DNA of 64,000 bases, from the IMG/VR virus record IMGVR_UViG_3300020122_000089, positions 1 to 64,000 of that record; one strand, written 5' to 3'. Made by a program: the position numbers and the translations under genes. Positions within the stretch are counted from its first letter, which is position 1, and each line of letters begins with the position of its first letter. Under the pieces are notes generated by a model, which saw nothing but the letters and a program-made list of their open reading frames with translations, did not search any database and had not been told where the DNA came from. The DNA is from a virus. Of this stretch, positions 689 through 63,643 are shown one piece after another.

Positions 689-1017
689 GCGTTAGAGACG
701 AACGATGCGATAGTGGCGGTCATTACGGATGTAATTGTATGCCTGGATTTAGTGATGGGCGGTGCGAAGGTGGATATCATTACGGGTGTTCTTGCTTTAC
801 GCCGACTCCAAATCAAGGGCGAGCACTGCACTCTAGTATCATTGACATCCGCCGCAACGACCACGAGCCCGCCAACTCAAATCAGGTTGAACGCGACAAC
901 CCTACTCCAATAGAAATCAAGAACGAAATAGACCGCAATATGCGGAAGGCGATGCTGGAGGATGATAAGTACGATCCGAACAATGATCCGTGGCCGGGAT
1001 CTTCCGGAAGAAAATAA
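685..1017 (+). CDS. Hypothetical Cys-rich protein with duplicated RCxxGxHYGCxC motif
   Basis: GAGGAGG RBS, ATGA overlap; ends SSGRK from the palindrome. Confidence 0.55.
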   Translation: MSVRDERCDSGGHYGCNCMPGFSDGRCEGGYHYGCSCFTPTPNQGRALHSSIIDIRRNDHEPANSNQVERDNPTPIEIKNEIDRNMRKAMLEDDKYDPNNDPWPGSSGRK

Positions 1018-1028
1018 AAGGAGGCAAC

Positions 1029-1355
1029 ATGCAAATCAAAGCGTTCGAGATACGAGACAAAGCAACATTCATTCCTGTTTGCGCGATTAAGATGTCTAGT
1101 GACGACGAAAAGGAGTCGTACCTGCTGCGCCGTGCTGGATTCGTTTCAGGCGATCACGTTGTACTCATGCGGTTTCACGACGATGAGTCGCACTATGATC
1201 CGTTTCGTTGGGATAACCGCCGCACAATGACAACCGCCCATCGGTATATCGCTGAGAATTTCGATTCACTCAAGTCCGGTGATGTCATTGACGTGCGCTT
1301 CATTCTGGGTGAGACAAACGATCCGGCGGCGTCCGAGCGATACTTCACGCCGTAA
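1029..1355 (+). CDS. Hypothetical phage protein
   Basis: AGGAGG RBS before ATG 1029. Confidence 0.7.
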   Translation: MQIKAFEIRDKATFIPVCAIKMSSDDEKESYLLRRAGFVSGDHVVLMRFHDDESHYDPFRWDNRRTMTTAHRYIAENFDSLKSGDVIDVRFILGETNDPAASERYFTP

Positions 1356-1383
1356 AATTTCTTCCGGAAGATGAAGATTTACC

Positions 1384-1413
1384 TTGACATTCAGAATGTC
1401 ATCATGCTAGAAT
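1384..1413 (+). promoter_or_regulatory. sigma70-type promoter with overlapping inverted repeat
   Basis: TTGACA-18-TAGAAT (TG extended -10); TGACATTC-A-GAATGTCA at 1385-1401. Confidence 0.75.
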
Positions 1414-1463
1414 AGCAGCATTGAAGAGGTTTGAGAAAAGCACGTTAAACGGAGGTGGGTAAA

Positions 1464-1955
1464 ATGTCAGCATCGTACACAAAACTCCGGGACGGGTCTT
1501 GGGGTTTAAGAATTCAAGGATCGGCCCAAAAGGGTCAGTCCGTAATCGTCACAAAGAAATCGGGCGAAACCAAGACGGAGATAGTCGGCAAGATTCTTTG
1601 GTCCATGGAAAACGGCATCACGCTGGTGGCGATAGCGCAAAGCGGTAATAGTCACTCACGCTCTAGTGATGGTCGCCGGAGGGCTGGCTCTTGCGGGTGC
1701 GATTGCGAGGAATGCTCCGAGCGTTGCATGTGTGACCGTTCCTGCAATTGCAGGGGGGGGGTAATATTTATGACTGCTAACACCCCTCGACTCGTTAAGG
1801 CCTCGGAATCTCAATCCGCAGCCATTCAGCAACCGCAAAAAGTACCGCAAGTTCGATTCACTAATTGGGCTACCCAATTCAAGATTGAGCAAGCTAACAG
1901 ACCAAGCCCACAAATGCAATTCAGAAATCTGTTCAAGGAGGAGGTGGCGAACTAA
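1464..1955 (+). CDS. Hypothetical protein (possibly two ORFs fused at a G9 tract)
   Basis: GGAGGT RBS; YTKLRDGSWGLRI N-terminus, Cys cluster, G9 at 1753-1761. Confidence 0.55.
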   Translation: MSASYTKLRDGSWGLRIQGSAQKGQSVIVTKKSGETKTEIVGKILWSMENGITLVAIAQSGNSHSRSSDGRRRAGSCGCDCEECSERCMCDRSCNCRGGVIFMTANTPRLVKASESQSAAIQQPQKVPQVRFTNWATQFKIEQANRPSPQMQFRNLFKEEVAN

Positions 1956-3103: not shown

Positions 3104-3395
3104 ATGACGACCATTGAAGAGATCAAGCAAATGCCTATCAGCCTTGAGTCGGTGAAGCTACTCGTTGAATGGGTCTATTCGGACCCAAAACGATGTAGGA
3201 CTCAAGAGTGGATTTTAATGGCGTATTCGCCATTCGGCGAATACATTGTCAGCCCTTGGACGGTCCATGGTGCAGGTAGATTTTGTTACGGGCGCGATTA
3301 AGTGGCTCGTACCAGAAGATACCGTCCTTCCTGAACTTCGTAAGGCCGTAGATGGACACGTTGCGGCGCTGTTCGCAAAGAAGGAGGCGAAATGA
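3104..3395 (+). pseudogene. Hypothetical protein with apparent frameshift near 3281
   Basis: ORF stops at 3301; the alternative frame continues KWLVPEDTVLPELRKAV...EAK* to an ATGA overlap with 3392. Confidence 0.45.
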
Positions 3396-4309
3396 AAGCG
3401 AATTCTTCCGGAAGAAATGGATCGGGCCCTTCTTACGATCTCTCGACACGGGCGATGCTTTCGTCCGTCGAAGTTCACGCCTGGACTGGTCGGCGGATGG
3501 ATAAGAAAGCATCTCAAGATGTTGCCCGCAAGTATGATCTTGGCGAGCGCACTGGAAGGTATTATAAGTGGCTCCTTTTGAAGGACGAAACCGGCGTACC
3601 GCCCGACGAGCTTGTGGCGGTTCATAATGCCGGAAACGCCGCTCGTGTTGTTCACTATGAACATACACTACCTTGGGCCGATGATGGCGCTCGGATTCTC
3701 CCTGTGTCAAATTTTCTTCCGTGGGCTTCGGCGGTACGAGAAAAGCAGTTTGCATTTGATGACGCCGTGAAAGTATTTGTCGAAGCATATCCCGGGTTAA
3801 AGCAGCACACGGAAGAAATCATGACGCATTACAAGCGTGGACTGTTCCGTGCGGATGATTACCCTGACGCTGGCGATCTTGCGAGACGTTTTTCGATGCG
3901 TATCAAGCATTTCCCGTTACCGTCGGCAAATGATTTCCGGGTTGACATTTCAGCGCCTCAAGCGGAGGCTATTCGTCAACAGATTGAGCGCGATTTGCAG
4001 GTTACGGTTCATGATGCTACCGCTGACCTATTCAAAAGGCTTGGCTCTATCGCTGAACGAGTTGCAAAGCTGAGTAACCCTAAAGGATCGGTGCGTGATT
4101 CTCTTGCGGATGACGTTGACGACATGTGCAAGCTGGTTGCTCGATTGAATCTCACGGGCAATCCTACACTGGAAGAGTTTCGATTGCGCGTGGAAAAAGA
4201 GTTGGCGTTTGACCCCGGTACGGTTCGCCGCATGCGTGGCGTTCGGAACTCGCTTGCTTCCCGGGCGGAAAAGATATATGATGATCTTGCAGGTTTCGTG
4301 GGTGAATAA
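3392..4309 (+). CDS. DUF3150-like protein of the MoxR/vWA module
   Basis: WTGRRMD, HYEHTLPW.DDGARILP, DYP, PLP..DFRVD motifs; position between ATPase and vWA genes. Confidence 0.65.
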   Translation: MKANSSGRNGSGPSYDLSTRAMLSSVEVHAWTGRRMDKKASQDVARKYDLGERTGRYYKWLLLKDETGVPPDELVAVHNAGNAARVVHYEHTLPWADDGARILPVSNFLPWASAVREKQFAFDDAVKVFVEAYPGLKQHTEEIMTHYKRGLFRADDYPDAGDLARRFSMRIKHFPLPSANDFRVDISAPQAEAIRQQIERDLQVTVHDATADLFKRLGSIAERVAKLSNPKGSVRDSLADDVDDMCKLVARLNLTGNPTLEEFRLRVEKELAFDPGTVRRMRGVRNSLASRAEKIYDDLAGFVGE

Positions 4310-5676: not shown

Positions 5677-5691
5677 TTCTTCCGGAAGAAT

Positions 5692-6486
5692 CTATCCAAT
5701 CAAATCTAACAGGCTTGGTGTTACGGGACGTTGATTGCGAAGCGTCCCGTATTCTGTTTCTGGCATTTCCGATTCCGAGCTGTTCGTATTTCCTGTCATG
5801 TCTATTACGTTTTGTCCTAGCCTTACGACTGCGGAATAGCAATGCGCCTCCTCGACTTCAATACCTATAGCTCGCAATCCTAAGTCCTTAGCGGCACGAA
5901 GTGTCGTGCCGCTACCTAGAAATGGGTCTAATACAATCCCGCACTTAGGACATAGCGCGTTAAGCCACATACGTATCGGGTCGATAGGCTTTTGAGTAGG
6001 ATGTACCGCTTGGCGTAATTGATTAGGCGTTAATCCAATCCACGAATCAAGGGTGTATCCGCCGCCATACCACTGTCGATCACCTTTATACGACACTAGC
6101 GCCTGCTCAAAGGCGGTAGCAAATTTTGGACGCGGCGTAGGCGGTGGCGCTGATTTAACTATTGTACAAAAATGCCAAGGTACAAATCCACAATCACGAT
6201 GGCGGCTGATAAGCATCTCTAACGCTTCTGGATGGTTGCGTGTGAATTCCAGTAAATAGCCCTGCTTGATATTTACCAAGGGTAGCCATCCTTCAACACT
6301 CACATTATGCACCGCTTCACCCCAATCCTCAATGTCATCTTGGCGTCTGACTATAGCACTACCAGCGGGGATGCCGTAAGGTGGGTCGGTTAAGACTAGA
6401 TCGACGGGTTGTAGCTGCGGGAGGATTTCGCGGCAGTCGCCATGGTAGATGGTGATTCCAGCATGGCTGTAGTAGGGTTTTAACAT
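5692..6486 (-). CDS. DNA amino-methyltransferase (N4-C/N6-A, beta class)
   Basis: LTDPPY, HPTQKP, LDPFLGSGTT, AIGIE. Confidence 0.92.
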   Translation of the reverse strand: MLKPYYSHAGITIYHGDCREILPQLQPVDLVLTDPPYGIPAGSAIVRRQDDIEDWGEAVHNVSVEGWLPLVNIKQGYLLEFTRNHPEALEMLISRHRDCGFVPWHFCTIVKSAPPPTPRPKFATAFEQALVSYKGDRQWYGGGYTLDSWIGLTPNQLRQAVHPTQKPIDPIRMWLNALCPKCGIVLDPFLGSGTTLRAAKDLGLRAIGIEVEEAHCYSAVVRLGQNVIDMTGNTNSSESEMPETEYGTLRNQRPVTPSLLDLIG

Positions 6487-6867
6487 TTTTCTTCCGGAAG
6501 TATTCTTCTGTCCCTTCGATTGCGCAACCAAACCCGCGGTGCTGCATGGCGCGGGTGGTAATCGCCTAACCCTTTACGCTTCTTGATTATTGCACCTTGT
6601 AGGGTTAAGCCAGCACCTTTAAGGGCGGGGCCTAACACATCGCCAAGCGTCCAAAGCGGTGGCTCTTTAATCCGGCTCGCCTTTAATCCTTGCCTGTTTT
6701 GCGATGGCGGGTTGTTCCGTAAGAAATTCTTGCCAGCATCGTTTACAGCAATCAGAAGGTGACCCGCATTGAAGCATTGACATTTCTGCAACGGGTATAT
6801 CACGGCGCTTACAATGCAGACATGTCATTGTAGTAGCGGTGCGTCTTTCTATTCTACTTAGCCCCAT
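6480..6867 (-). pseudogene. Zn-finger-like hypothetical protein, possible frameshift ~6685
   Basis: ORFs 6667..6867 and 6480..6803 join after a 1-nt change in AAAGG. Confidence 0.35.
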
Positions 6868-6873: not shown

Positions 6874-7992
6874 CTAGCCCTTTTTGATTTCAAAAAACTT
6901 CTCACCTAGATCGCCTTGACGCCCTAGGCCGGCATTGTAGCCAATAAAGTTATCTATTTGACGGACTTGATAGCCTTGCTTTGCGCAATGCTGTTGCATT
7001 GATTGGGTGAGTGGATAACGGCGATCGCCTATATTTAGGATAAATACGGCTTCTGGCTTTAGCTGGCGCATGGTTTTGTCTATCAATGGATAGTAAAATC
7101 CTCTGCACCAGCTATAGTAATCCGCATAACGGTTTAAGGAGTTTGTTTCTTCGTCTGAGTATTTTTCGGTGTCGAAATATGGGGGTGAGGTTATTGCAAG
7201 GTCGTAATAATCCTCCATTTCATCTGATTCTTCAAAGGGGATAGGATTCACCAATGCGGTAAATGTTGGGCGAATACGGCGGATGAAGGATTCAAGACCC
7301 GCCAGGCCGTCGGCGGTCTTGGTGGATGGATCGTAGCAGGTGTAGCTATCTACTAATACAGAAACGCCTAGCATACGCCCACCCCACCCTGCACAAGGGT
7401 CGAGTACGTGACTTTCAGCAGTAAGCCCATACCTTTCGCATAGCCTATACGCTGCTATTGGAGGGAATTCGTTGCACCATTGCACAAAGTTAAATCCAAA
7501 CTGTAGGACTTGATACAGTAAATCAGACGACCGCCCTACATGAAGAAGTGTAGCTCTTGCGATATGTGGAAAGTATTGGGGGTTTTGTAGGGATTCATAA
7601 ATCGAAACATTGCCATTTCCACATTTGGTGGTGAGCCTATGTGGGTTGAATAGGAGCGAAGTTCGTCGGCAGGCGTCTTCGCCTTTACACAGCCTCGCGT
7701 ATTCAATCAGTTCGGTGTATTCGTTTGTAAGCATTGATACGAGTTTTTCAAGGCTAATGCCGCATAGGGTTTCTTCTAATGCTTTTGCGAGTAGATGGCG
7801 GTTTATTAGCGGTGTTTGAATTGGGCGGCCAAGCAGGTCTACGGTTTGCCCTAACAGGTCTTCCGTTGTGCCATCCTGAGGGTCAATTATCTGCTGCGCC
7901 GCTAGTTCAATTGGTAAATCATCTAAGCACACTTCTACTAATGGCGCTTCGGTGATATCGGTGTTGTATAGCTCGAATAGTGAGGTGCTCAT
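6874..7992 (-). CDS. DNA amino-methyltransferase (motif I before SPPY)
   Basis: LDPCAGWGGR, TSPPYFDTEKY. Confidence 0.85.
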   Translation of the reverse strand: MSTSLFELYNTDITEAPLVEVCLDDLPIELAAQQIIDPQDGTTEDLLGQTVDLLGRPIQTPLINRHLLAKALEETLCGISLEKLVSMLTNEYTELIEYARLCKGEDACRRTSLLFNPHRLTTKCGNGNVSIYESLQNPQYFPHIARATLLHVGRSSDLLYQVLQFGFNFVQWCNEFPPIAAYRLCERYGLTAESHVLDPCAGWGGRMLGVSVLVDSYTCYDPSTKTADGLAGLESFIRRIRPTFTALVNPIPFEESDEMEDYYDLAITSPPYFDTEKYSDEETNSLNRYADYYSWCRGFYYPLIDKTMRQLKPEAVFILNIGDRRYPLTQSMQQHCAKQGYQVRQIDNFIGYNAGLGRQGDLGEKFFEIKKG

Positions 7993-8009
7993 TTTTCTTC
8001 CGGAAGAAG

Positions 8010-8297
8010 TTACATTACCCGGCCATTGCCATCGTCGCCATCTTCATCGCCAGGGTCGCGTTCGGTAATAAAGGCGTTTGCTGCTTTTATTTCTGCTTGC
8101 ACTTTGAAGAATTCAAGGATGCCTTGCATCTCCCAGATACGTAGGGGCGCATCATAGTGCCCGCTTAACTCTCCATTGGCACCTATTACGAAGGCTATGA
8201 TCCGAGAATCCTCTGGCTCGTTAGCAAGTGCTGATAGTAATAGTTCACGTCCTGACGGCCCGTGACCATCTTTAACTGTCGCCGATGGCTCATCCAT
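8010..8297 (-). CDS. Hypothetical protein
   Basis: ORF tightly packed in operon. Confidence 0.6.
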   Translation of the reverse strand: MDEPSATVKDGHGPSGRELLLSALANEPEDSRIIAFVIGANGELSGHYDAPLRIWEMQGILEFFKVQAEIKAANAFITERDPGDEDGDDGNGRVM

Positions 8298-8299: not shown

Positions 8300-8659
8300 T
8301 TATTCAATCCTTTCATCTAATCGATCCATTCCTAACTGTAGGGCTATGAATACCTCTAGTCGAGCGCCCGGGGATTTTTCCCACCCCTTTAAGCAGTAAA
8401 CGGCATCGCACTCAAGCATTGCCTTAATGTCGTTCTTCATGTAATCCCGCCATTGCGCCGCACCGGCATGGTTAATCTCTACTGGCGACACCACGTAGTA
8501 CCCTTCTTTACCACGAAGCGTACTGGCTACGGAATGGAATCGCTGTATATTTTGTTCACGGCCAGACCCGTCGCCAATTGGGCCTGTAAGGTATACGGTT
8601 ATTTTACTCGCCTTCTTCTGCGGCATCCCTATCCTTATTTGATTCTTCCGGAAGAACAT
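8300..8659 (-). CDS. DUF4406 / nucleoside 2-deoxyribosyltransferase-like protein
   Basis: VYLTGPI, W.DYM..DI..MLECDAVY.L.GWEKS.GA.LE. Confidence 0.8.
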   Translation of the reverse strand: MFFRKNQIRIGMPQKKASKITVYLTGPIGDGSGREQNIQRFHSVASTLRGKEGYYVVSPVEINHAGAAQWRDYMKNDIKAMLECDAVYCLKGWEKSPGARLEVFIALQLGMDRLDERIE

Positions 8660-9644
8660 CCAGCCCTTTTATCTGTCGCACCGCCTTAGAGATAGTATCG
8701 GAGATTTCTGGGTTCTCACGGAGGAATGTGGCGCTAAAGGTTCTACCTTGCCCTAGGCGTTGCCCTCGAAACCCAAACCATGCCCCCGATTTCTCGATAA
8801 TTTTACAGTCAACACCAAGGTCTAAAAGATCCACCGCTGCATTGAATCCTTTTCCAAACGTCAATTCAACTTCGCATTTCTTAAAAGGTACGGCAACTTT
8901 GTTCTTTTTGATTTCGACTTTGACCTTGTTTGCGATATGCTGGTCGTCGCCATCTTTGATTGCGCCTATGTTACGGACTTCGATTCGCATTGAGGCGTAA
9001 AACTGAAGGGCAAAACCTCCGCTTGTTACGTCTTTAGGCCCTCCGTAACCACCCATACCTAAATCTTTTCGGATTTGATTTATGAATAAAAGGACAGTGT
9101 TCGATTTGCGGGTTACGCCACTGAGTTTTCGCATCGCTTGGGACATTAATCGGGCCTGTAGGGCGGGAAGTGATTGTCCCATTTCACCTTCAATAACCGC
9201 TCGTGGAACTAACGCATCAACGGAATCTATAACAACCATAGCCACATCACCGGAACGGATAATAGTCTCTACGATTTCGAGCGCCTCCTCCCCACAGTCC
9301 GGCTGGGAAAGGAATAGAGAATCAACATCAACACCTAAGGCCGCCGCATATTCCGGATCCAAGGCCTGCTCGACGTCCACATAAGCAACTAACCCCTCCC
9401 TCTGCGCTTGCACCGCCGTCTGAAGGGCTAATGTTGACTTACCGCCAGCAGGTCGTCCGTACACCTCTGTAACCCTGCCCTTCGGCAGTCCGCCTATGCC
9501 GGTGGCGATATCTACGCTTAGGCATCCCGTTGATATCGCCTCACGTCGAATAGGCGAATCTGAAAGCCGCATAATCGACCCTTCACCGTAATTCTTTCGG
9601 ATGATTTTTACCGCTTCATGGAAGTGGATATGCGATGCCGTCAT
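8604..9644 (-). CDS. recA: RecA recombinase
   Basis: GIGGLPKGRVTEVYG, GGKST, SQPDCGEEALEI, QARLMSQAMRKL, FINQIR, KNKVA.PF. Confidence 0.97.
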   Translation of the reverse strand: MTASHIHFHEAVKIIRKNYGEGSIMRLSDSPIRREAISTGCLSVDIATGIGGLPKGRVTEVYGRPAGGKSTLALQTAVQAQREGLVAYVDVEQALDPEYAAALGVDVDSLFLSQPDCGEEALEIVETIIRSGDVAMVVIDSVDALVPRAVIEGEMGQSLPALQARLMSQAMRKLSGVTRKSNTVLLFINQIRKDLGMGGYGGPKDVTSGGFALQFYASMRIEVRNIGAIKDGDDQHIANKVKVEIKKNKVAVPFKKCEVELTFGKGFNAAVDLLDLGVDCKIIEKSGAWFGFRGQRLGQGRTFSATFLRENPEISDTISKAVRQIKGLDVLPEESNKDRDAAEEGE

Positions 9645-9886
9645 ATTCGCTCAATCGTTACCGACACTCTAATGGTTAAAGGCAATTTCCAACCATGTGG
9701 CTCGCTTTGTAAATCTTTTCAGTTACGAATGTATCCGAAATGCTCATCGCGGTATCTCGCCGCCTCTTTGCGTGTCTTAAACAATGCAGGCTGTAAACCG
9801 TTATGGATAATGTGCTCGGTAACGCCGTCTAGCTTATTTCTCTGGCGCCATAATAACGCCCAATGCTTGCTAGTTTTGAGAATCAT
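9641..9886 (-). pseudogene. Hypothetical protein with internal TGA at 9719-9721
   Basis: ...GYIRN*KDLQSEPHGWKLP...ERI* ends in an ATGA overlap with recA. Confidence 0.6.
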
Positions 9887-10319
9887 TTTCTTCCGGAAGA
9901 TTAGGTATAGTATCAACCAACAGCATGCCTGTACGCTTAGATTCTTCTATTAACCCCCTCGCGGCTTTTTGTTGATTGCAGGTTTCATTGCCAAACTTTG
10001 CATCATGTACGGCGGCGATGTTGCGCTCTTTGTGCTGCCCCCCTTTTGACCACGGAATAATATGATCCCCTGCTGCTTCTTCAAGTGCGATTGGTTCTTT
10101 ACAGATGTTGCATTTGCCGTTTTGGCGTATCCAGGCTTTTTTAATCCATGCCTTTGGAATTGGAGGTCTTGAGTCTTGATTGATTTGACCGTAAGGCGCT
10201 TTTTTGAATTTCTTATATGCACCGTGAATAGCATGCTCGCCTACCAGTGCGCATTCGGCAACTAGGTATTCGTAGATGCGCTGGGAGTCGGTGTTGGGGC
10301 TTGGGGTTCTTATGGGCAT
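9870..10319 (-). CDS. HNH endonuclease
   Basis: CNIC, DHIIPWSKGG, NI...H...CNQQK. Confidence 0.85.
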   Translation of the reverse strand: MPIRTPSPNTDSQRIYEYLVAECALVGEHAIHGAYKKFKKAPYGQINQDSRPPIPKAWIKKAWIRQNGKCNICKEPIALEEAAGDHIIPWSKGGQHKERNIAAVHDAKFGNETCNQQKAARGLIEESKRTGMLLVDTIPNLPEENDSQN

Positions 10320-10337: not shown

Positions 10338-10832
10338 CTATTCGTCGATCATTTCGCCTACCATCTCCTCGATATCAGCCATCTCTAAATCCTCTTGGAT
10401 TTGACGGCGGTGCCAAAAGGCGTACCATCGAAATTGTAAATCGAATCTTAACGAACGTACGTATGTGCGTAGCACGTAAAGCACGGCGCCAAACGGTCCG
10501 GTCTGCGATATTACGCACAATAGCGAGATACTGGATTGTGTTTGTAGTCTGATTTGTAAGGTGCGGTTAGCAGCAATGCGCCGGTCAAATAGGTCTAATT
10601 CTAAGGATTCAGCCCTGCTATGAAACGCCGCCTTGCGCACTTCATGTAACATTTTATCCGTACACGGCTGCGCCGAATAAATCACCGGACCTTCCTCTTT
10701 GTTGAACTGTCCTGCAAAACGCTCTGCGGCTAATTTAGAGGTTAGTGGATGTCCATAGCCCCTTTCGCCGGTGGCGATATTGTGCGATGCCACTACGTAA
10801 TAATCTAGCTTTTTCTTCCGGAAGAATTTCAT
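10338..10832 (-). CDS. Hypothetical protein
   Basis: ATGA overlap; starts MKFFRKK (palindrome). Confidence 0.6.
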   Translation of the reverse strand: MKFFRKKKLDYYVVASHNIATGERGYGHPLTSKLAAERFAGQFNKEEGPVIYSAQPCTDKMLHEVRKAAFHSRAESLELDLFDRRIAANRTLQIRLQTQSSISLLCVISQTGPFGAVLYVLRTYVRSLRFDLQFRWYAFWHRRQIQEDLEMADIEEMVGEMIDE

Positions 10833-12635: not shown

Positions 12636-13177
12636 ACCCTATTCACCCTTGCAGGTTTTAATTGCGATCTCGGCCCGCCTTCTGGTGAATAAATCACGTC
12701 AGACTTGCGCTTTACTTCTCGCGGTGTACCGTATTGTGTTTTCTCGCAATTGCGGCATATAGCATGATCCTCGCAGGTGCCAAGCTCGCCTATAAACGAT
12801 CTGCATTCATTACAGTACAACGGTCGTTCTTCAAATCGACATAATGCCGGGCTACCGCCTATCGGCGGCTCGAATCTAAAGCATCGCCCACATCGATATG
12901 CTTCTGGATATGGACATTCCGGCGTTACACATTCATAGCTAATGCCGCATTCCGGACATGAATGCTCGTGCTCGATATTCCCGTAGAATACTGGAGGCTT
13001 TTTCTCGCCACAAAAAATCTTTGCTTCGTCAATAAGTTTGCCAATATTTACATCGTAGATATTTGTTTTTCGACTTAGTAACCCCTCTTGCTGCATGATT
13101 GGCACAAGATCGAATCTTGATAGATTCCAATAATCTCGGTGCTCTAATAGCCAATCTATGACTAGCTTGCGGTTCAT
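12632..13177 (-). CDS. Cys-rich (Zn-binding) hypothetical protein
   Basis: Multiple CxxC; ATGA overlaps. Confidence 0.6.
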   Translation of the reverse strand: MNRKLVIDWLLEHRDYWNLSRFDLVPIMQQEGLLSRKTNIYDVNIGKLIDEAKIFCGEKKPPVFYGNIEHEHSCPECGISYECVTPECPYPEAYRCGRCFRFEPPIGGSPALCRFEERPLYCNECRSFIGELGTCEDHAICRNCEKTQYGTPREVKRKSDVIYSPEGGPRSQLKPARVNRV

Positions 13178-14246: not shown

Positions 14247-14264
14247 TAATTCTTCCGGAAGATT

Positions 14265-51980: not shown

Positions 51981-52097
51981 ATGGAATCTTCCGGAAGAAA
52001 GAATTTCATTGTTCAACATCCAAATGGCGACCTCACCCTCTGCGGGCCTGGTAGATCGAAAACCTTCAACATACCATCTAAAATCACTCAACAGTGA
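51981..52097 (+). CDS. 38-aa leaderless peptide MESSGRKNFIVQHPNG...
   Basis: ATG at predicted +1; not in the ORF track. Confidence 0.5.
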   Translation: MESSGRKNFIVQHPNGDLTLCGPGRSKTFNIPSKITQQ

Positions 52098-52124: not shown

Positions 52125-52373
52125 ATGCGGCACATCCTAGAACATGCTGAACCGTGCGAAGATGTACGGTATCAAGTAAAGATGGCGCTTTTGGTTGATG
52201 CCGCTCTTTTAGGGTGCGGCCAGCAAAACGATCCAGGTTGGCCGTACCTGCCTACTGAACCCATAGCATGCCTGCCAGTTTCAGATTTGTGGTTGAATGA
52301 AATCCTGGCATTGCCGCATATTGCTGAACGGATACAGAAATCTCATGACCCACTTACAGTGCCAGCCGATTAA
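52125..52373 (+). CDS. Hypothetical protein
   Basis: Fills the rest of the moron. Confidence 0.4.
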   Translation: MRHILEHAEPCEDVRYQVKMALLVDAALLGCGQQNDPGWPYLPTEPIACLPVSDLWLNEILALPHIAERIQKSHDPLTVPAD

Positions 52374-53665: not shown

Positions 53666-53908
53666 GGTTGGTCTCCTTAAACTCTTTTTCTTTCTTCCGG
53701 AAGAATTCTTTAGGGCCGCTCCGGTGATTTCGGCCATTTTATGACGGATGACTTCGTAGGTGTCTTTTGAGGTGTTTAATTCTGTTTCACCTGAAACGCT
53801 TGACGCCCATTCAAGAAGGATTAAAAGGTTTTCATCGTTGAAACTTTCATGCGGAGAGGTTTGACGTGCGTTAAACCAAACGTCGCGGAGGTATCTTTCC
53901 CATGCCAA
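53666..53908 (-). CDS. Small hypothetical protein (in frame with the downstream gene)
   Basis: Upstream part of ORF 52370..53908. Confidence 0.4.
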
Positions 53909-53909
53909 G

Positions 53910-54857
53910 CTAATACACCTTTTGCCCTCCGCCTGCGGATGAGAATATCCAGGTAGATTTGCCTTTCCTGCTGGTGAATCTTTGCTTGTGCGTATTGAAG
54001 GCCGATCTGATGCGTAGCCGCATAGCTTCGCGCTCTTTTGCTTTTAATTCTTTATCGGTATCGGCTATGCGCATTAGATTCTTTCGCATCGCTTCTGGCG
54101 TAGGGGATTCTCGCCAATCATGTGTGTGAGTTTCTGCGTAGTTACGTCGCCAGAGTGCTTGTACGTATTCGAGGTCGAGGTCGGATGGTTCACGATACAG
54201 CCCAAAACATTTTCTTCTTTCTAGTTTTGCGCGTTCGCAACATAGATGTGAAACGTGCCTCCAAATGCCGTGAAAGCCAAGAAAGTAAAACCCCTCGCGT
54301 GGCATTGGACCCATGTCCGCCTCTTGCCCGGGGTGTCCAAACGTACCCATTACACGACGCCTCGCTTCATCCCATGGGCCTATGATTTCAGGCGGCGTGT
54401 ATTGACTTACCCACCAACGAGGAACGCCAATCTCTTGGTTGTATACCATTTGCGGATAAGGAAGCCCGTATTCTTCACCGTCAGGAAGCATCGCCTTTAA
54501 CTTACCGAATTCTTTTTTCAATGGGTAGGTTAAGGTTTTTACTGTTCTTCCGGAAGAATCACAGACGTCTACATGCCAGCCGATTTGCTCCTGAAGGATT
54601 ACCCTGTGTAGGTATTTCAACGCCCTTGTGAAGGGTGTCCATGTACAAATTGAACCCCATTCCAATCTAAGCATTGGCAGTCCATTTGGGGTTAATCCTG
54701 CAATGTTTATCAATTGGCGTTGAAACCAATCACACCCTTGAGGTGGATTAAAGTTTCTTGGCGGTGGCCATATATCGTAAGGATTCTCGGACATTTGAGA
54801 TGTACCGAGAACTAATGGCCTGTCTACGTCGATGAGGTATTTTTGTTCTGCGCTCAT
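53910..54857 (-). CDS. Hypothetical protein
   Basis: 315-aa ORF, ATGA overlap. Confidence 0.7.
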   Translation of the reverse strand: MSAEQKYLIDVDRPLVLGTSQMSENPYDIWPPPRNFNPPQGCDWFQRQLINIAGLTPNGLPMLRLEWGSICTWTPFTRALKYLHRVILQEQIGWHVDVCDSSGRTVKTLTYPLKKEFGKLKAMLPDGEEYGLPYPQMVYNQEIGVPRWWVSQYTPPEIIGPWDEARRRVMGTFGHPGQEADMGPMPREGFYFLGFHGIWRHVSHLCCERAKLERRKCFGLYREPSDLDLEYVQALWRRNYAETHTHDWRESPTPEAMRKNLMRIADTDKELKAKEREAMRLRIRSAFNTHKQRFTSRKGKSTWIFSSAGGGQKVY

Positions 54858-55504
54858 TTGATAAATGCCGTGTATGAAGGTGGGTAAGATATTGTCGATT
54901 GTGGAATTGAAGGGGCGACCCCTGCCGTCATCGGGCCATCAAAAGATACATCGATAGCGCATGGCGCTACGCCTTCGAGACGTTTATTCACCTCCATAAA
55001 CTGCTTTAATTTCTTCTTTGGGATTGATAAACAAAATCTGCCGTATTCAGTAGTTGGAAACTCGTGGTCATTCCAGCCTTGCATCCATCGTATGGTTCTA
55101 GTGCCAACACTCCAAAACCCAAAATATATCTTCCACGTTCCACGGTCGGTGGCGATACCAATAATAAAATCCTTGATGAAGAAGCTGATCTGGCAGCCCC
55201 ATTCGTACACGTCTCTATCACTAGAACGCTGAAGCCCTATGCCGTATTGCCAAACGGCGGCGTTGCCCTTGCCCCACCATAAGATTCGGTGCTTACTACC
55301 TTTTGCGTTCCGTACTGGACTTCCTTTACCTTCAATACGGAAGAATGGCCATGCGAGAGAAAACCCTAGCCAGTGCGTCTTAGAGGATACTAGAATACAG
55401 CCACCCCAGCCCCACGGATTATATCTAGGGCGCAGGAAATACATGCGGCGATAATACACGCCACCACTTTCGTCTGTTTTGAATTTCTTCCGGAAGAATT
55501 GCAT
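54854..55504 (-). CDS. Trp/Gly-rich hypothetical protein
   Basis: Starts MQFFRKK (palindrome). Confidence 0.55.
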   Translation of the reverse strand: MQFFRKKFKTDESGGVYYRRMYFLRPRYNPWGWGGCILVSSKTHWLGFSLAWPFFRIEGKGSPVRNAKGSKHRILWWGKGNAAVWQYGIGLQRSSDRDVYEWGCQISFFIKDFIIGIATDRGTWKIYFGFWSVGTRTIRWMQGWNDHEFPTTEYGRFCLSIPKKKLKQFMEVNKRLEGVAPCAIDVSFDGPMTAGVAPSIPQSTISYPPSYTAFIK

Positions 55505-57246: not shown

Positions 57247-57268
57247 GAGAAATCTTCCGGAAGAAAGT

Positions 57269-58279
57269 TCACTTAACACCAATTCCTATTAGGATTGCTA
57301 CGCTTTGCGCGTCAATATCGGGGTGGTAATTATCTTCAAATGTCATCCGGATAGCTTCGCACATTGCTTGGTGTTTTTTTGGTGATGTTTCAGTGATTAT
57401 TTGCGCCGCTTCTTCGGTTGAATGATTGTCTAGGTCGATACAGGTTTCACCATCACGCCAAAACACCCCCGATCGCTGTCCTTCGTAGTATCGGGCATGG
57501 CCTATTAGCGGCCTTCCTATTGCAGCCCATGAATGAATACAGTGGCCGAAACCGTCGCCGGTTGGTTTGTCATGATAAGCCCAAGATGAACGCGCCATCT
57601 TTTCTGCGATTGAGGCCACCGGAGTTAAAAACCCATCAGGGCATTTATGGCCGTAGGATTTGAATTCGTAGCTTGGTAATAATTTTGACAGTTCGGCGAA
57701 AGGTTCATAGGATTCTGGAATTTGCGGGAGTAGATTAACAAAAGATGTAATCCTTTTCGATGCTTTTGGCGTACGGAAACGAAATATCGAAAGGCTATCA
57801 AATTCTTGTGAAATATGAACGTATTTGCCTTCCAATCGTCTGCTGGTGCTATCGAGTATCAACGGGCTGAGTTCGTGATTGATTCCCTGCCCTGCATTGC
57901 CGAGATGGTAAAGATATTTTGCGCCAATTTCTTGTGCGAAATTGTGAAAACCTTGCTGGTTTTCTTGAACTGATGCTAGTATAAAATCAAGCGACATTGT
58001 GCGGGCGCGTTCTAGGGTAACGCCATATATTGGGTGTTCTGGATGGCATTGATCGAATGTAATAAATAGCCCGGGTTCAACCTCTCGATATTTAGCGTCG
58101 ATATTAAGGTATTGCCTAGCAAGTCGGTCGTCGCCAAAGCATTCGCCAAACCTCCATATTCCTGCCGTCCACCATTCAAGTCCTAGTGGGGTATAAAGTT
58201 CGCATCCTAATCTGTCTTCAAATAGGCGCTGGAGGGAATAGTATAAATCTGAGTGATGTCGGTCGGCTAGGATGCGCAT
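57269..58279 (-). CDS. GT-B glycosyltransferase-like protein
   Basis: MRIL, H.K..GDGFGH.IH..AA.G.P.I, DGETCI. Confidence 0.65.
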   Translation of the reverse strand: MRILADRHHSDLYYSLQRLFEDRLGCELYTPLGLEWWTAGIWRFGECFGDDRLARQYLNIDAKYREVEPGLFITFDQCHPEHPIYGVTLERARTMSLDFILASVQENQQGFHNFAQEIGAKYLYHLGNAGQGINHELSPLILDSTSRRLEGKYVHISQEFDSLSIFRFRTPKASKRITSFVNLLPQIPESYEPFAELSKLLPSYEFKSYGHKCPDGFLTPVASIAEKMARSSWAYHDKPTGDGFGHCIHSWAAIGRPLIGHARYYEGQRSGVFWRDGETCIDLDNHSTEEAAQIITETSPKKHQAMCEAIRMTFEDNYHPDIDAQSVAILIGIGVK

Positions 58280-59890: not shown

Positions 59891-59910
59891 AATTCTTTCC
59901 GGAAGAATTT

Positions 59911-60636
59911 CTATCGCTTCACAGCCTTAAAGCCGCCGGGCCCTTCTGGCGGACCTTCAAATGTTAAGACGTGCGTTTTATCTAAAAGCCAATATAGTTC
60001 GGTTTGTGTTTTACCATTGCAGGGGTGCCATTCGCCTACGATTATTGGAACCTCTACTGCCGACGTGTCTTCTAATGCTGACCACTCGCAACCTTCGCAG
60101 TCCATTTTTAGAAAGCCGATCTCGCCATACGACCTAACGATTTCAGAAATAGAAATGCAAGGAACTTCTTCTTCTTCAAATGCTACGCCGGTAGCGCCGG
60201 CGCCGGTGACTAAAGAGGCGTTGCCAATAAACGCATGGTGGTTAGCGTTTTCTGAGCCTTGATATCGCCAGCGGATTTTTGTAGAATCAACATCAGGGCC
60301 TGCAACGCCTACTGGAAGTACCATTACTTGCTGCGTTAGATTGTTTTCTTGAATGTTCAATCTTAGTAAGGTGACATTTTCGGGGACTGGTTCTATACAT
60401 AGCACTATAAGGTCTGGATTATCCATCGCCATTGCAATGCCAACAGAGCCAATGTGCGATCCTATATCCACCGCTAACCCTGATTGCGGGGCGTTTTCTT
60501 TTAAGTGATATTCATCTGCCGCCATTGAGGATTGAATTGTATTCCAATCGTTTGTTTCGAGACGGTAGTGCATGTGCGCGATGTTGCCATGCGGGGTTAT
60601 AAAATCCTGTATTGCTTGTTCGTAGTGAATTCGCAT
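59911..60636 (-). CDS. FkbM-family methyltransferase
   Basis: VDIGSHIG, IEPVPEN, FLKMDCEGCE, GEWH. Confidence 0.88.
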   Translation of the reverse strand: MRIHYEQAIQDFITPHGNIAHMHYRLETNDWNTIQSSMAADEYHLKENAPQSGLAVDIGSHIGSVGIAMAMDNPDLIVLCIEPVPENVTLLRLNIQENNLTQQVMVLPVGVAGPDVDSTKIRWRYQGSENANHHAFIGNASLVTGAGATGVAFEEEEVPCISISEIVRSYGEIGFLKMDCEGCEWSALEDTSAVEVPIIVGEWHPCNGKTQTELYWLLDKTHVLTFEGPPEGPGGFKAVKR

Positions 60637-61853
60637 CAGATTACCGCTGCTCCGCTTATTTCAGTTGAATCTACTTCTAAGAATGGCTCGGCGTGAAATT
60701 CTCTCGCGCTGTTAATATCCACTTCCACTTCTTCTAGGAACGGACGCCAGTATTTATCTCTCACTACCTGCCAAGAGAGTTCTTGTTTTACAGTTTCAGC
60801 AGCTTGCAGTCCTTGTTCTGCGTATAAATCTTGATTGAGATAAATCTCTTTAATTGCTCGCGTAATTGCCGGTATAGAGGGAATTGCTTGCCAGCAGGCA
60901 TTCATATTCCAGAATCTTTGTACGCTTGGTACTTTAATTCCAGCAAAAAGGTATTCTGGGCTTGCAGAGAAATCATGAACGATAACGGGCGTTCCGCATG
61001 CCTGTGCCTCCGCTTGGCAAAGGCCAAATCCTTCGCCATATGACGCCCCTAGTAAAACATCGGCGGCACTGTACATCATCGCCATGCGGTCATCGGATAA
61101 TCCCATCGCTATGTCGTAGTCTGGCGTGTTGCAGGTGCAATCACCTAACCCGAGATTGCGGACTAAATCGTTTAAGTCAAGGCCGCCATCATTTGTAGTG
61201 GGGGTTAATGCGGTATGTAATAGCAAATCTGAATCGGGATATTCTTTGTGGAATGCGGCAAATGCTGCCATTTGTTCTGGAAATGCTTTCCTTGAAGGAT
61301 AGTAGAAGTTTGCTGCCGCTATCAAGCAAATGAATTTATCCTCGCGAATTCCTAATTCCTTACGGGCCGCTTTTTTGTCTCTGGGGTAATAAATATCTGT
61401 ATTAATCGCATGTGGAATGTAGATGCTAGGGATGCCAGACTTCCGCATTTCGCGTTTACCAAATTGCGACATTGCTACAACATGTTTCGCTTCTTTCAGT
61501 ATCCTTACCAATCGAGGAGGTGTCGGTATTGAATCTACCGGACTATAAGTGATCCAAGGAACACTGAACAGTCTTGGGAAGTCGCGGCTAAGCGTCCAAA
61601 CATCGTGGAACGAGATTAAGCAGTCGGCCCTAGTAACCTTTACGTGCTCGCCAACTATATCATGACCCCAACTATCACGAAATGTTGGGAGGTATTCAAC
61701 ATCGTCAATCCTAGCCGGGCCGCCTTTATACCCCCAATGCGGCATGAAAAATACCTCATGCCCTAAATCCTTAAAGGCACGGATAAGGAAGCGGGACTGA
61801 GTGCCGTATCCAGAGTTCACAAAATGGGCCACGGAGGACAAAAGGATTCGCAT
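60636..61853 (-). CDS. GT4 glycosyltransferase
   Basis: SGYGTQ, IPHAINTDIY, RK, YSAADVLL..S.GEGFGL..AEAQACGTPVI. Confidence 0.92.
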   Translation of the reverse strand: MRILLSSVAHFVNSGYGTQSRFLIRAFKDLGHEVFFMPHWGYKGGPARIDDVEYLPTFRDSWGHDIVGEHVKVTRADCLISFHDVWTLSRDFPRLFSVPWITYSPVDSIPTPPRLVRILKEAKHVVAMSQFGKREMRKSGIPSIYIPHAINTDIYYPRDKKAARKELGIREDKFICLIAAANFYYPSRKAFPEQMAAFAAFHKEYPDSDLLLHTALTPTTNDGGLDLNDLVRNLGLGDCTCNTPDYDIAMGLSDDRMAMMYSAADVLLGASYGEGFGLCQAEAQACGTPVIVHDFSASPEYLFAGIKVPSVQRFWNMNACWQAIPSIPAITRAIKEIYLNQDLYAEQGLQAAETVKQELSWQVVRDKYWRPFLEEVEVDINSAREFHAEPFLEVDSTEISGAAVI

Positions 61854-61979
61854 TTTAATTTCTTCCGGAAGATTTCTTTCTTTCGACGTGTCGCAATATC
61901 AAGTATACGATAAAAGCCCCTACCGCAGCGCAAATCACCGCTGCGCTGAATATTTCAAGCATGTCTCGAAACGGATGGT

Positions 61980-62672
61980 TCATCGCGGCATATTACGAAA
62001 GCTACGCACCGGATCGAATCCGTGCTGCGCAATACGGTATTTATCAGGAACTGTACCTGGATCGCCCTGTCGCGCCAATTGATTGCCTAGGTACATTGCA
62101 ATTTCCTGAAAGGCGGTGTAGGGTTCAACCATTTTATAGAACTGGAAGTCTTTCAGGCAATCGTTTGGTATAAGGTTCAGGTATCGAGATTCATCTCTGG
62201 TAATAGTTAATACCGGAACGCCGAGTTCGATAAACAGAGGATGTATTTCTATCGGTGGATTATTTAGAAAATCTTCGCGACGTTTGCGATTCCAGTTAAG
62301 CCCGCGTTGACGACCTAGCCGTCCGATAAGTCTGCGCTCTCGTTTTAATTCATCGCGATAGCTCGGAGATGATTCCCTCAGCCCGTCTACGTTATAGACG
62401 CTAATCGGGTTTTTCTGCTCGCCTATAGATATGCGAATACAGGGATACAACCTGCCGCAAAATCCTACTATTACACGCTCGTTCATTTCTTTAAATTTAT
62501 CATTTGAAGTCCATCCCCATCGTGAAATTTGCTCAGTAAGTTTTCGCGGTGGTTTATTTTTTAGGCGCTCATAATCTACGGTGAAACTACGGCGGTTATA
62601 ATGTAGCTTTGGATCCAATCCAAAACCCATAGCGCCGTCATAGTAATCCTTTTTACCGCCGTGAATTTTCAT
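61980..62672 (-). CDS. Hypothetical phage protein (KDYYD...AFQEIAMY...HGFD)
   Basis: 230-aa ORF in operon. Confidence 0.7.
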   Translation of the reverse strand: MKIHGGKKDYYDGAMGFGLDPKLHYNRRSFTVDYERLKNKPPRKLTEQISRWGWTSNDKFKEMNERVIVGFCGRLYPCIRISIGEQKNPISVYNVDGLRESSPSYRDELKRERRLIGRLGRQRGLNWNRKRREDFLNNPPIEIHPLFIELGVPVLTITRDESRYLNLIPNDCLKDFQFYKMVEPYTAFQEIAMYLGNQLARQGDPGTVPDKYRIAQHGFDPVRSFRNMPR

Positions 62673-63533
62673 TTATTCTTCCGGAAGAAACATATCCAAC
62701 AACGAGTGTTTGGGTTTTATCAGCGACACTGGATGAATAGCGATAGGTGGTATATCCATCTGCTCAATATCACAATCTGAATGGTTGCCATTACCGGAGG
62801 ATAAATCAAGCACTTCTTGATTCATTCTATTGGCGGCGATTTCACAATAGCGCTCTTCGATTTCGATGCCAATGGCATGGAATCCCAAATTCTTAGCAGC
62901 TCGAAGAGTAGTACCGGATCCAAGGAACGGATCAAGGACAATACCGTCAGGCGGCATGGAAAGTGATAGCAGATGGGTAAATAAAGATAAAGGCTTTTGA
63001 GTTGGGTGGTCTAACTTGCCGGGCTGGCCATGGCGGTAACTATCAGCCTTAAAATAATTTGGGCACGTCCCGGGACGTAAATTATTCCAGGATTTACCGG
63101 TTTTATACGCAAACACGCAAAGCTCCACACCAGAATCAAATCCAGCATGCGGTGCTGCTGGGACTGGTACGGCCTTAACCAGGACAAATGGCCTGGTCTT
63201 CCAACCTTCCCCTTCTAGCGTTGAGACAATGTCACCGAATTGTCGATGTCCGCACCAAGCGTAAATTGTATTGCTACATAAACGTGAGGCTAGTAAGATC
63301 GACCCAACTGCGCGGGCGGTACTGGCGCCCCAGTCGCTATCGTCGTTGAAAAAATCAAGTGAACGTTTCCCTTTACCCGGTTGGCGCACATGGGTGGCGC
63401 TGTTACCTAGACTAATCGAGTAAGGCGGGTCGGTTAATACTAGATCGACGGGTTCTAGCCGTGGGAGGATTTCCCTACAATCGCCGTGGTAGATTGTAAT
63501 TCCACCATGTTCATAGTAGGGCGTCAACGGCAT
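62673..63533 (-). CDS. DNA amino-methyltransferase (beta class), paralogue of 5692..6486
   Basis: LTDPPY, HPTQKP, LDPFLGSGTT. Confidence 0.92.
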   Translation of the reverse strand: MPLTPYYEHGGITIYHGDCREILPRLEPVDLVLTDPPYSISLGNSATHVRQPGKGKRSLDFFNDDSDWGASTARAVGSILLASRLCSNTIYAWCGHRQFGDIVSTLEGEGWKTRPFVLVKAVPVPAAPHAGFDSGVELCVFAYKTGKSWNNLRPGTCPNYFKADSYRHGQPGKLDHPTQKPLSLFTHLLSLSMPPDGIVLDPFLGSGTTLRAAKNLGFHAIGIEIEERYCEIAANRMNQEVLDLSSGNGNHSDCDIEQMDIPPIAIHPVSLIKPKHSLLDMFLPEE

Positions 63534-63540
63534 GATAAGA

Positions 63541-63569
63541 AGTATAACACAAATCAAAAACATTTGCAA
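63541..63569 (-). promoter_or_regulatory. Leaderless sigma70 promoter
   Basis: TTGCAA-17-TATACT-7-ATG 63533. Confidence 0.8.
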
Positions 63570-63643
63570 GTGTTATTTTTGCGGCCGACCGCCCCTTCCT
63601 CCGTTTCTTCCGGAAGAAGGGGCAAATCGGGTTAGTTCGGTGA

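Follow-up and report, generated by a model that had tools for sequence, protein, structure and literature searches.

Iterated junction motifs have been known in Cluster O mycobacteriophages and in Cluster K for more than 10 years without a mechanism. Here we describe a palindrome, with the core TCTTCCGGAAGA, that recurs at the gene junctions of G000, an uncultured phage recorded in IMG/VR as IMGVR_UViG_3300020122_000089 (104,058 bp, 49% GC), and that takes lineage-specific forms in two relatives, G001 and G002. The stretch of DNA that was analyzed, "the window," is the first 64 kb of this record (positions 1-64,000).

The Cluster O repeat is a 17-bp sequence, TGTTCGG-N3-CCGAACA, present in more than 30 copies per genome together with a small number of SigA-type promoters (Cresawn et al. 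2015, PMC4351075). Like the element described here, it has invariant inverted-repeat arms, and its copies are found genome-wide, between open reading frames (ORFs) or at the 5' ends of genes. The two are unrelated in sequence and in phage lineage. The Cluster O center varies within a genome and has no meaningful orientation, whereas here the center is fixed per genome, lineage-specific and, where it is asymmetric, orientation-biased. Substitution for the Shine-Dalgarno sequence, as seen here, is not among the reported features of Cluster O.

In Cluster K, the start-associated sequence (SAS) and its extended form (ESAS) are short repeats located 3-7 bp before start codons, at the ribosome-binding position; they occur in one orientation, their extended consensus differs by subcluster, and a role in translation initiation was proposed for them (Pope et al. 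2011, PMC3203893). The element described here shares the start-associated placement at the ribosome-binding position, with 18 copies in G000 and 14 in G001 lying 2-12 nt before start codons. However, the SAS is an asymmetric 13-mer (GGGATAGGAGCCC) with a true AGGAG and is limited to the non-structural arm, whereas our element is palindromic, has no canonical Shine-Dalgarno sequence, is spread genome-wide, and has one third of its copies away from any adjoining start codon.

Cluster A stoperators are asymmetric 13-mers read by the monomeric immunity repressor of a temperate phage (PMC6550527, PMC9283540). They resemble the present element in having dozens of genome-wide copies in short intergenic gaps, oriented with transcription (here in G002 only), and in a consensus that co-evolves with its reader between lineages. 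The stoperator analogy drawn in an earlier model-made reading of the window (the original prediction) was reasonable as to the genome-wide array, the orientation and co-evolution with a reader. In contrast to stoperators, the element is palindromic in two of our three lineages, and a non-exhaustive scan of ~90 ORFs yielded neither a repressor nor an integrase.

The NGN domain of RfaH reads the ops hairpin in the non-template DNA strand, RfaH targets lack a Shine-Dalgarno sequence, and the KOW domain recruits the ribosome via S10; the related UpxY works in the leader of the gene that encodes it (PMC7819879). LoaP requires a small tetraloop RNA hairpin (PMC12691694). These systems are comparable in that G000 and its relatives encode an NGN+KOW protein, that the signal is short, hairpin-capable and strand-specific, and that its targets lack a Shine-Dalgarno sequence. 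A precedent for mobile elements that carry their own paralog and signal is PrfaH on IncX plasmids, which has its own ops-like site (PMC11880322). As far as sequence and structure prediction indicate, the phage system differs from RfaH/ops in having no ops sequence, 51 copies, a predicted beta-barrel KOW and no conservation of the ops-contact residues.

In form, the element is closest to the Cluster O palindrome and the Cluster K start-associated sequences; by sequence, it belongs to none of the Cluster O, Cluster K and stoperator families. What appears to be new is an iterated junction motif whose arms are kept among relatives while the center changes. With three natural variants, concerted change of sites, a link to starts that lack a Shine-Dalgarno sequence and a conserved candidate reader, this lineage makes swap experiments feasible.

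An iterated palindrome at gene junctions

The exact core TCTTCCGGAAGA occurs 32 times in the window, from the first copy at 1000-1011 to the last at 63606-63617, and 51 times in the complete genome, where 0 are expected; it was absent from 100 dinucleotide-preserving shuffles of the window. Both counts given in the original prediction, about 32 perfect cores and about 10 near matches, are borne out, since ten further copies in the window carry changes inside the core. Genome-wide, the 14-mer TTCTTCCGGAAGAA was found at 0, 1, 2 and 3 mismatches 30, 25, 13 and 6 times, compared with 0, 0, 0.7 and 7 under a third-order Markov expectation.

The flanks had been described as usually A/T. Among the 51 copies, position -1 is T in 38 and A in 13 and position +12 is A in 42 and T in 9, with G or C at neither; positions -2 and +13 are mostly A/T, and nothing is conserved further out. 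The full element is therefore a symmetric WW-TCTTCCGGAAGA-WW, with no -10 or -35 element attached.

The core contains no stop codon in any frame and, where it is translated, reads LPEE (the commonest), SSGR or FFRK, so that all three frames are used. Shuffling synonymous codons reduced the 51 copies to 25-29, the untouched intergenic ones, and removed essentially all of the ~26 intragenic copies; the motif is therefore not due to codon usage, in line with the prediction that selection is on the nucleic acid rather than on the peptide. Within 30 nt of a gene boundary we found 35 of the 51 copies (mean 6.6 and maximum 16 in 2000 random placements). After start codons had been corrected by ortholog lengths and Shine-Dalgarno sequences, only ~3-5 of the 51 lay deep within genes; the predicted position at termini or in linkers thus stands, as does the idea that the motif marks gene junctions. 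One block, genome 72450-84835 (12.4 kb, 24 small minus-strand ORFs), is free of the motif (P ~0.002) and may represent a different expression class or a recent acquisition.

Folding of the hairpin gave -0.5 kcal/mol for the core and -2.4 to -3.3 kcal/mol with flanks. Because the hairpin is weak and is followed on its 3' side by A's rather than a U-tract, an intrinsic terminator was rejected. Scanning viral contigs for the exact 14-mer returned single chance matches only, and in GTDB prokaryote genomes the 16-mer was present, among the matches listed, only as single chance copies in unrelated taxa.

Variants in related phages

The comparison covers three related lineages: G000, G001 (IMGVR_UViG_3300012948_000003, complete, 104,444 bp) and G002 (two pieces, L118 and L197). 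G001 and G002 were found with a profile of a 570-aa protein that has ~30 further relatives, seen as proteins; a single-protein search of viral contigs found nothing. When contigs were scanned for a YYRR center plus AATG, most matches were due to chance and only those in G001 and G002 were real.

The search for the motif in related phages, suggested in the original prediction, revealed variants. G001 has 0 copies of the G000 word, and its top k-mer is TTCTTTTAAAAGAA, with 25 perfect copies, extending to TTTTCTTTTAAAAGAAAA. The G002 form is TTCTTCCAGAAGAA, which has an asymmetric center and at least 17 copies. The arms TTCTT/AAGAA are invariant in all three lineages and only the center changes, from CCGG (51 copies) in G000 to TTAA (25) in G001 and CCAG (at least 17) in G002; the three centers differ by transitions only.

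G000 and G001 have 38 ORFs in common, at 24-70% protein identity, and G002 is nearer to G000. Five G000 copies have a G002 counterpart at the same junction: 45394 (L118 306), before the gene for the 570-aa protein; 39640 (L118 5135) and 38220 (L118 6749), before and after a 460-aa gene; 37986 (L118 6939), ahead of a giant gene; and 102457 (L197rc 366), in the 3'-terminal part of the rfaH-like gene. In another three cases a G002 site aligns with a decayed G000 copy. Around the sites, the sequence has diverged to ~50-60% protein identity. Since CCGG and CCAG stand at the same junctions, inherited sites have changed in concert. Orthologous sites with differing centers point to selection on each site by a reader of changed specificity and speak against the recent spread of a mobile element, as far as can be read from the alignments. 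Relatives from other metagenomes carry variants at orthologous junctions, so the element is not an adapter or assembly artifact, a possibility that the original prediction had raised.

Between G000 and G001, motif junctions are shared only at chance level (5' ends, 2 against 1.8 expected; 3' ends, 3 against 1.7). This turnover of sites between distant relatives fits a signal that has to recur at some density better than gene-specific operators. The site at the rfaH-like 3' end is old, because homologs of the rfaH-like protein have C-termini (...LPEE.. or SSGRN) that are motif-encoded peptides.

Orientation and start codons

The asymmetric center of G002 allows its orientation to be scored, and 15 of the 17 strict copies present CCAG on the sense strand (p = 0.002). 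By a codon model all G002 genes are co-oriented, and the minus-strand ORFs seen in L118 were rejected as shadows of an open-ended giant ORF. For the two copies in the wrong orientation, no tie to opposite-strand genes was found.

The motif-adjacent starts are conspicuous for what precedes them. Of the 18 such starts in G000, which lie 2-11 nt past the motif, 17 have only the GGA of the motif itself and no Shine-Dalgarno sequence; a Shine-Dalgarno run of at least 4 was present at 1/18 of these and at 96/136 other starts (p = 1e-7). In G001, 9 of 14 motif-adjacent starts and 6 of 146 elsewhere have no Shine-Dalgarno-like sequence (p = 6e-8). Eight of these nine, which include those of the 5243-, 1022- and 645-aa genes, are at 2-3 nt from the motif, and other G001 copies run directly into GGAG, giving AGAAAGGAGG. 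The Shine-Dalgarno contrast is somewhat inflated, since the "other" starts were partly picked by their Shine-Dalgarno score. At motif-adjacent starts the element occupies, and often replaces, the ribosome-binding site. Many copies are preceded by stop codons 2-9 nt upstream, and two lie at +6 to +30 of transcripts. The terminator scan was too permissive for defining operons.

An RfaH-like protein conserved in the three lineages

Outside the window, the G000 ORF 102447-102971 (minus strand) encodes a protein with a NusG NGN domain (Pfam E = 7e-11), and each of the three lineages has a gene for an RfaH-like NGN+KOW protein. In NCBIfam, the best match of the G000 and G001 proteins over the full NGN+KOW length is RfaH, followed by UpxY and then NusG; equivalog-level similarity to RfaH was not reached (36 and 50 bits against a TIGR01955 cut-off of 144.5), and the match to RfaH in the PDB had an E value of ~0.01. 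The AlphaFold2 model (pLDDT 91.6) shows an NGN domain and a beta-barrel KOW, its NGN superposes on that of RfaH at 2.3-2.8 A, and Foldseek matched the model to RfaH and NusG chains.

Among the 38 ORFs common to G000 and G001, this protein is the sole recognizable sequence-reading regulator. Repressors, helix-turn-helix proteins, ParB and integrases were found neither among these shared ORFs nor in the non-exhaustive scan of ~90 ORFs, and an 81-aa divergent ORF in L118, considered as a regulator, was rejected for having no domain and no conservation. No homolog of the RfaH-like protein was found in isolated phages, and alignment searches with it gave no match or an unrelated contig (L243) without an iterated motif.

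The E. coli-type ops was rejected as the signal: the ops word GGCGGTAGnnTG has 0 full matches in G000 and G001, and the 8-mer core of ops, which ranks 107th among 8-mers, is found at 14 places on the two strands, most of them coding. In G000, the rfaH-like gene has a strong promoter and a ~220-nt leader that contains two GC-rich hairpins and, 48 nt before the ATG, a motif copy. A further copy precedes the -35 by 18 nt, and the 3' end of the gene has one as well.

A candidate mechanism and its alternatives

We propose a cis-acting role for the palindrome: it would be an expression signal, placed where cistrons start, that is read from the sense strand while transcription proceeds or directly afterwards. 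The form read would be a small hairpin, either of the non-template DNA strand or of the nascent RNA, with an A/U-rich stem of 5-7 bp and a 4-nt loop that is CCGG, CCAG or UUAA, depending on the lineage. The most likely reader would be the phage RfaH-like NusG paralog. This factor would load onto host RNA polymerase at every copy and keep the polymerase processive over ~100 kb of co-oriented genes, and its KOW domain would bring the ribosome to start codons that lack a Shine-Dalgarno sequence. Such a scheme would resemble the RfaH-ops system, or that of LoaP and its leader hairpin, except that the signal recurs at many gene junctions and not once in each operon.

We consider it somewhat more probable than not that the element is an expression signal whose reading is strand-specific. 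For the fuller reading, a sense-strand signal at cistron starts with the RfaH-like protein as its reader and the mechanism outlined above, we would put the probability at about 0.35. It is somewhat less likely that a private loading word and the phage's own RfaH-like factor couple polymerase and ribosome gene by gene over the 100-kb genome. If they do, word and factor would drift together (CCGG, CCAG, TTAA) and insulate the expression of each phage from that of its relatives. A true link to the RfaH-like protein would extend the role of specialized NusG paralogs from one signal per operon to genome-wide coupling per gene, and would offer synthetic biology a compact orthogonal expression signal.

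Several observations weigh against this proposal. The first group concerns the element: (i) in G000 and G001 it is a perfect palindrome with a self-complementary center, which a hairpin loop does not need and which favors a symmetric dimer on double-stranded DNA; (ii) the hairpin is weak, at -0.5 kcal/mol for the core; (iii) an operon leader has a single ops or LoaP signal, whereas the phage genome has 51 copies; and (iv) the inflation of the Shine-Dalgarno contrast noted above applies. The second group concerns promoters. Of ~17 strong sigma-70-like promoters, seven are preceded by the motif, 6-18 nt ahead of the -35, and an eighth copy abuts TTGACA, so that polymerases starting at such a promoter never meet that motif. 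The third group concerns the protein. Its KOW is predicted as a beta-barrel (AlphaFold2 with 70 sequences, which is unreliable for fold-switchers) and not as the autoinhibited alpha-hairpin that makes RfaH dependent on its signal, and the phage protein has H, A, S and E in place of the ops-contact residues K10, H20, R23 and Q24 of RfaH. The rfaH-like leader of G001 lacks the motif, its only copy being upstream of the promoter. Finally, the link between protein and motif is a co-occurrence in three related lineages that are not independent.

The alternative that survives best, which we consider unlikely, is a self-contained translation-initiation element in the mRNA that needs no RfaH-like factor. 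The A-rich 3' arm (AAGAA followed by A's) would be a non-canonical ribosome-binding sequence, acting, for example, through protein S1 or by a presumed pairing with a 16S ribosomal RNA tail of the form ...CCUCCUUUCU, and the U-rich 5' arm would mask the 3' arm, providing coupling to the upstream cistron or control by an RNA-binding protein. The motif stands at the ribosome-binding position of genes without a Shine-Dalgarno sequence, at a fixed 2-3 nt in G001, where other copies continue as GGAG; a ribosome terminating at the stop codons 2-9 nt before many copies would melt the stem; and the sense-strand bias in G002 suits a signal at the RNA level. The start-associated sequences of Cluster K have a like placement and a like proposed role (PMC3203893). 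Against such an element, structure or A-richness alone predicts variable copies, yet 51 of 51 are identical, center included; copies upstream of promoters, in far leaders and inside genes serve no start codon; and the stem is very weak.

We find it more doubtful that the copies form an array of operators on double-stranded DNA, acting as stoperator-like roadblocks, transcription-unit insulators or nucleoid and organization sites, with a phage or host protein as the reader, which would be a symmetric dimer in G000 and G001. This is close to the original prediction of a binding array for a dimeric protein in silencing, genome organization or segregation, of which a real, selected and lineage-specific element has stood. 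Its dimeric part is weakened by the CCAG bias and the spacing to starts without a Shine-Dalgarno sequence, and also by the conserved genes, which include an RfaH-like factor in all three lineages but yielded no DNA-binding regulator. The perfect 14-18 bp palindrome and its symmetric flanks suit operators, as does a sequence that is invariant per genome and differs by lineage, in the way that stoperators co-vary with their repressors (PMC6550527). Stoperators are also genome-wide, intergenic and orientation-biased. Moreover, 7-8 copies lie just upstream of a -35, including at the rfaH-like promoter in both G000 and G001, and one L118 copy lies between divergent promoter-like elements. However, a symmetric dimer cannot impose the 15/17 bias of the asymmetric G002 center, the distances from the motif to the -35 hexamer (0, 6, 6, 9, 12, 18, 18 and 18 nt) lack helical phasing, on which ground a promoter activator was also rejected, and the fixed spacing to starts without a Shine-Dalgarno sequence goes unexplained. 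The ~90 ORFs scanned held no repressor, helix-turn-helix protein, ParB or integrase, with the limit that many ORFs are unannotated and may include a reader of new fold.

It is very improbable that the motif is a self-propagating or recombination element, a boundary for module exchange, gene conversion or insertion of homing genes that is kept by molecular drive. The phage is rich in suitable genes (RecA, ERF, YqaJ, RusA, HNH, LAGLIDADG and group I introns), and sites turn over between G000 and G001 while within-genome homogeneity is what gene conversion leads one to expect. The original prediction had asked whether gene gain and loss break at the motif, and the support is anecdotal only: a LAGLIDADG gene adjoins the degenerate copy at 43664. 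Sites inherited at G000/G002 junctions amid ~50-60% protein identity instead indicate purifying selection per site; there is no flanking homology, the motif is too short to transpose, and neither the spacing to starts without a Shine-Dalgarno sequence nor the orientation bias is explained.

Least likely of all is a HIP1-like methylation or restriction palindrome in which CCGG would be the target of a phage or host methyltransferase and CCAG and TTAA would have arisen through 5-methylcytosine deamination. In its favor, genes for two N6/N4 methylases, a C-5 cytosine methylase and a Vsr-like DUF559 endonuclease are present in G000, the centers differ by transitions only, and G000 has TTTAAA once against 20.5 expected and therefore could not carry the G001 variant. 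Yet CCGG is not avoided in G001 or G002 (observed/expected ratios, O/E, of 1.21 and 0.89, on which restriction avoidance of CCGG was rejected as the driver of the center change), and outside the motif G000 shows no enrichment of it (0.84). Neither G001 nor the G002 pieces have an ortholog of the C-5 methylase, and the 5-bp arms, the junction placement and the starts without a Shine-Dalgarno sequence are left unexplained.

Copies of the element in the window

From ~5.5 kb on, almost all G000 genes are on the minus strand. The copies of the element in the window are given below, with no strand assigned to the element itself; plus and minus refer to the genes and promoters nearby, and SD stands for Shine-Dalgarno sequence. 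The exact cores are as follows.

1000-1011: last codons of the plus gene 685-1017; AGGAGG SD, then the next plus ATG, 17 nt on
1360-1371: 4 nt past the stop of the plus gene 990-1355; -35 TTGACA (1384) 12 nt downstream
3404-3415: codons 5-8 (MKANSSGR) of the plus gene 3392-4309; AGGAGG SD before its ATG
5678-5689: 2 nt past the stop of the N6/N4 methylase gene 5692-6531 (minus)
7996-8007: the whole spacer between the stop of 8010-8297 (2 nt) and the ATG of 6874-7992 (minus; 3 nt), which lacks an SD
8644-8655: last 12 codons of recA (8604-9644, minus); ATG (8626) of a DUF4406 gene 17 nt on
9889-9900: last codons of the HNH endonuclease gene 9870-10319 (minus)
10814-10825: codons 3-6 (MKFFRKK) of ORF 10338-10832 (minus); directly past the YqaJ stop
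13547-13558: ATG of 13174-13536 (minus) 10 nt on; 3' end of 13533-13850
14251-14262: between the stop of 14265-14687 and an ATG at 14246, 4 nt away, without SD
16584-16595: last codons (NLPEET) of a minus-strand open frame downstream of dnaB
19086-19097: mid-gene in 18716-19471 (minus), among the few deep copies
20133-20144: 3' end of 20114-20371 (minus); ATG of the next ORF 5 nt on
20403-20414: 5' leader, at ~+20 to +30 of a consensus minus promoter (-35 at 20468); start codon 31-34 nt on
22323-22334: 5' arm is the U-tract of a sense-strand terminator hairpin (-25.8 kcal/mol); ATG 4 nt on
23735-23746: ATG of 22394-23701 (minus) 33 nt on, with a GAAGGAG SD between
24104-24115: low-coding sequence, ~80 nt upstream of a terminator-promoter pair (24022/24014)
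27499-27510: last codons of 27487-28347 (minus); ATG of a 1110-aa gene 22 nt on
30493-30504: within the 2887-aa ORF, relative position 0.80; in-frame ATG 12 nt on
37986-37997: 8 nt before the ATG of the DUF559/Vsr-like gene 37414-37977 (minus), without SD; G002 counterpart L118 6939
38220-38231: 9 nt past the stop of 38241-39623; 18 nt upstream of a -35 TTGACT (38201); G002 counterpart L118 6749
39640-39651: ATG of 38241-39623 (minus) 16 nt on; the G002 junction has the CCAG form, L118 5135
45394-45405: 2 nt before the ATG of the 570-aa gene 43679-45391 (minus), without SD; divergent plus promoter 9 nt away; G002 counterpart in the CCAG form, L118 306
50928-50939: ATG 10 nt on, giving 127 aa (G001 ortholog, 108 aa); abuts a plus-strand TTGACA
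51987-51998: ~+6 to +18 of the transcript from a plus promoter (-35 at 51945)
53693-53704: in-frame ATG 27 nt on, with an AAGGAG SD
54546-54557: within 53910-54857 (minus), relative position 0.32
55486-55497: codons 3-6 (MQFFRKK) of 54854-55504 (minus)
57253-57264: 4 nt past the stop of 57269-58279; 6 nt upstream of a -35 TTGACA (57246)
61861-61872: ATG of the glycosyltransferase gene 60636-61853 (minus) 7 nt on, without SD
62677-62688: last residues (FLPEE*) of 62673-63569 (minus); ATG of 61980-62672 4 nt on, without SD
63606-63617: non-coding, ~36 nt upstream of the start of 62673-63569 (minus)

The ten copies with changes inside the core are the following.

43664-43677, degenerate copy TTCTTCCGGAgGAA: just past the stop of the 570-aa gene, adjoining the LAGLIDADG gene 42802-43704 (plus); in G002 this junction has an intact motif (L118 2059) and no LAGLIDADG gene
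48241-48254, degenerate copy TTCTTCCGGgAGAA: directly upstream of the start of 47622-48236 (minus)
6489-6502, degenerate copy TTCTTCCGGAAGtA
6712-6725, two-mismatch copy TTgTTCCGtAAGAA
29158-29171, two-mismatch copy aTCTTCCGGAgGAA
33638-33651, two-mismatch copy TTCTTaCGGAgGAA: within the giant ORF
36688-36701, two-mismatch copy TTCTTCCGGAgtAA: within the giant ORF
52799-52812, two-mismatch copy TTCTTCCGGAgaAA
55840-55853, two-mismatch copy TcCTTCCGGAAGAc
59894-59907, two-mismatch copy TctTTCCGGAAGAA: junction 59890/59911

Two start codons can be reassigned from these positions. ORF 50534-51169 probably starts 10 nt past the motif at 50928, and the true start of 52370-53908 (minus) is probably the internal ATG near 53666, which gives 431 aa (G001 ortholog, 390 aa). 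The terminator at window 22335-22380 (minus), whose U-tract is continuous with the motif at 22323, is the strongest intrinsic one in the co-oriented gene array. Beyond the window, the copies at 65811, 66197 and 67819 have flanks that are alike and lie outside the four group I intron intervals described below.

Other features of the phage genome

G000 had no nucleotide match among 50,697 isolated phages (blastn), its terminase has at most ~35% identity to any terminase of an isolated phage, and most of its large ORFs were assigned no family; by these measures the phage is very divergent. Recombination and replication genes recognized in it are those for recA, dnaB, a sliding clamp, ERF, YqaJ, RusA and an RNase T-like exonuclease. 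Other recognized genes encode HNH and LAGLIDADG endonucleases, two N6/N4 methylases, the Vsr-like DUF559 protein and glycosyltransferases; beyond the window are a large terminase, a C-5 cytosine methylase and four group I introns. Neither tRNAs nor Rfam families were found in the window. The DNA-modification set of G000 is as follows.

5692-6531, minus: N6/N4 methylase gene
6874-7992: N6/N4 methylase gene
37414-37977: DUF559 Vsr-like gene
Genome 100647-101453: C-5 cytosine methylase gene; the Pfam match spans only the N-terminal half of the family

The four group I introns, at Rfam gathering score, lie just past the window at genome 64333-68969 on the minus strand (L240 333-576, 721-1637, 2376-3306 and 4024-4969). 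The LAGLIDADG-like gene 42802-43704 (plus) and an HNH_3 gene, 49009-49890 (plus), are on the opposite strand within the minus-strand structural block, a placement that suggests free-standing homing genes. The giant ORF 28726-37389 (minus) varies widely in size among the relatives, encoding 2887 aa in G000, 5243 aa in G001 and more than 1695 aa in G002, where it runs off the contig.

Both ends of the G000 record carry a 15-bp tandem array, (ACTTGCGCGGCTCGG)n, with ~19 copies in all (window 1-125 and genome 103880-104058), from which the "95-bp direct terminal repeat" of G000 arises. Possible readings of the array are a packaging, telomere-like or iteron region and the closure point of a circular assembly.

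Avoided sites differ between the two complete genomes. In G000, TTTAAA is nearly absent, at the 1 occurrence against 20.5 expected given above, and GATC, GGCC and CGCG have O/E ratios of 0.6-0.65. In G001, CCWGG occurs 0 times in 104 kb, against 120 times in G000, and GGCC has an O/E of 0.38. From these frequencies, G000 and G001 probably face different host restriction systems.

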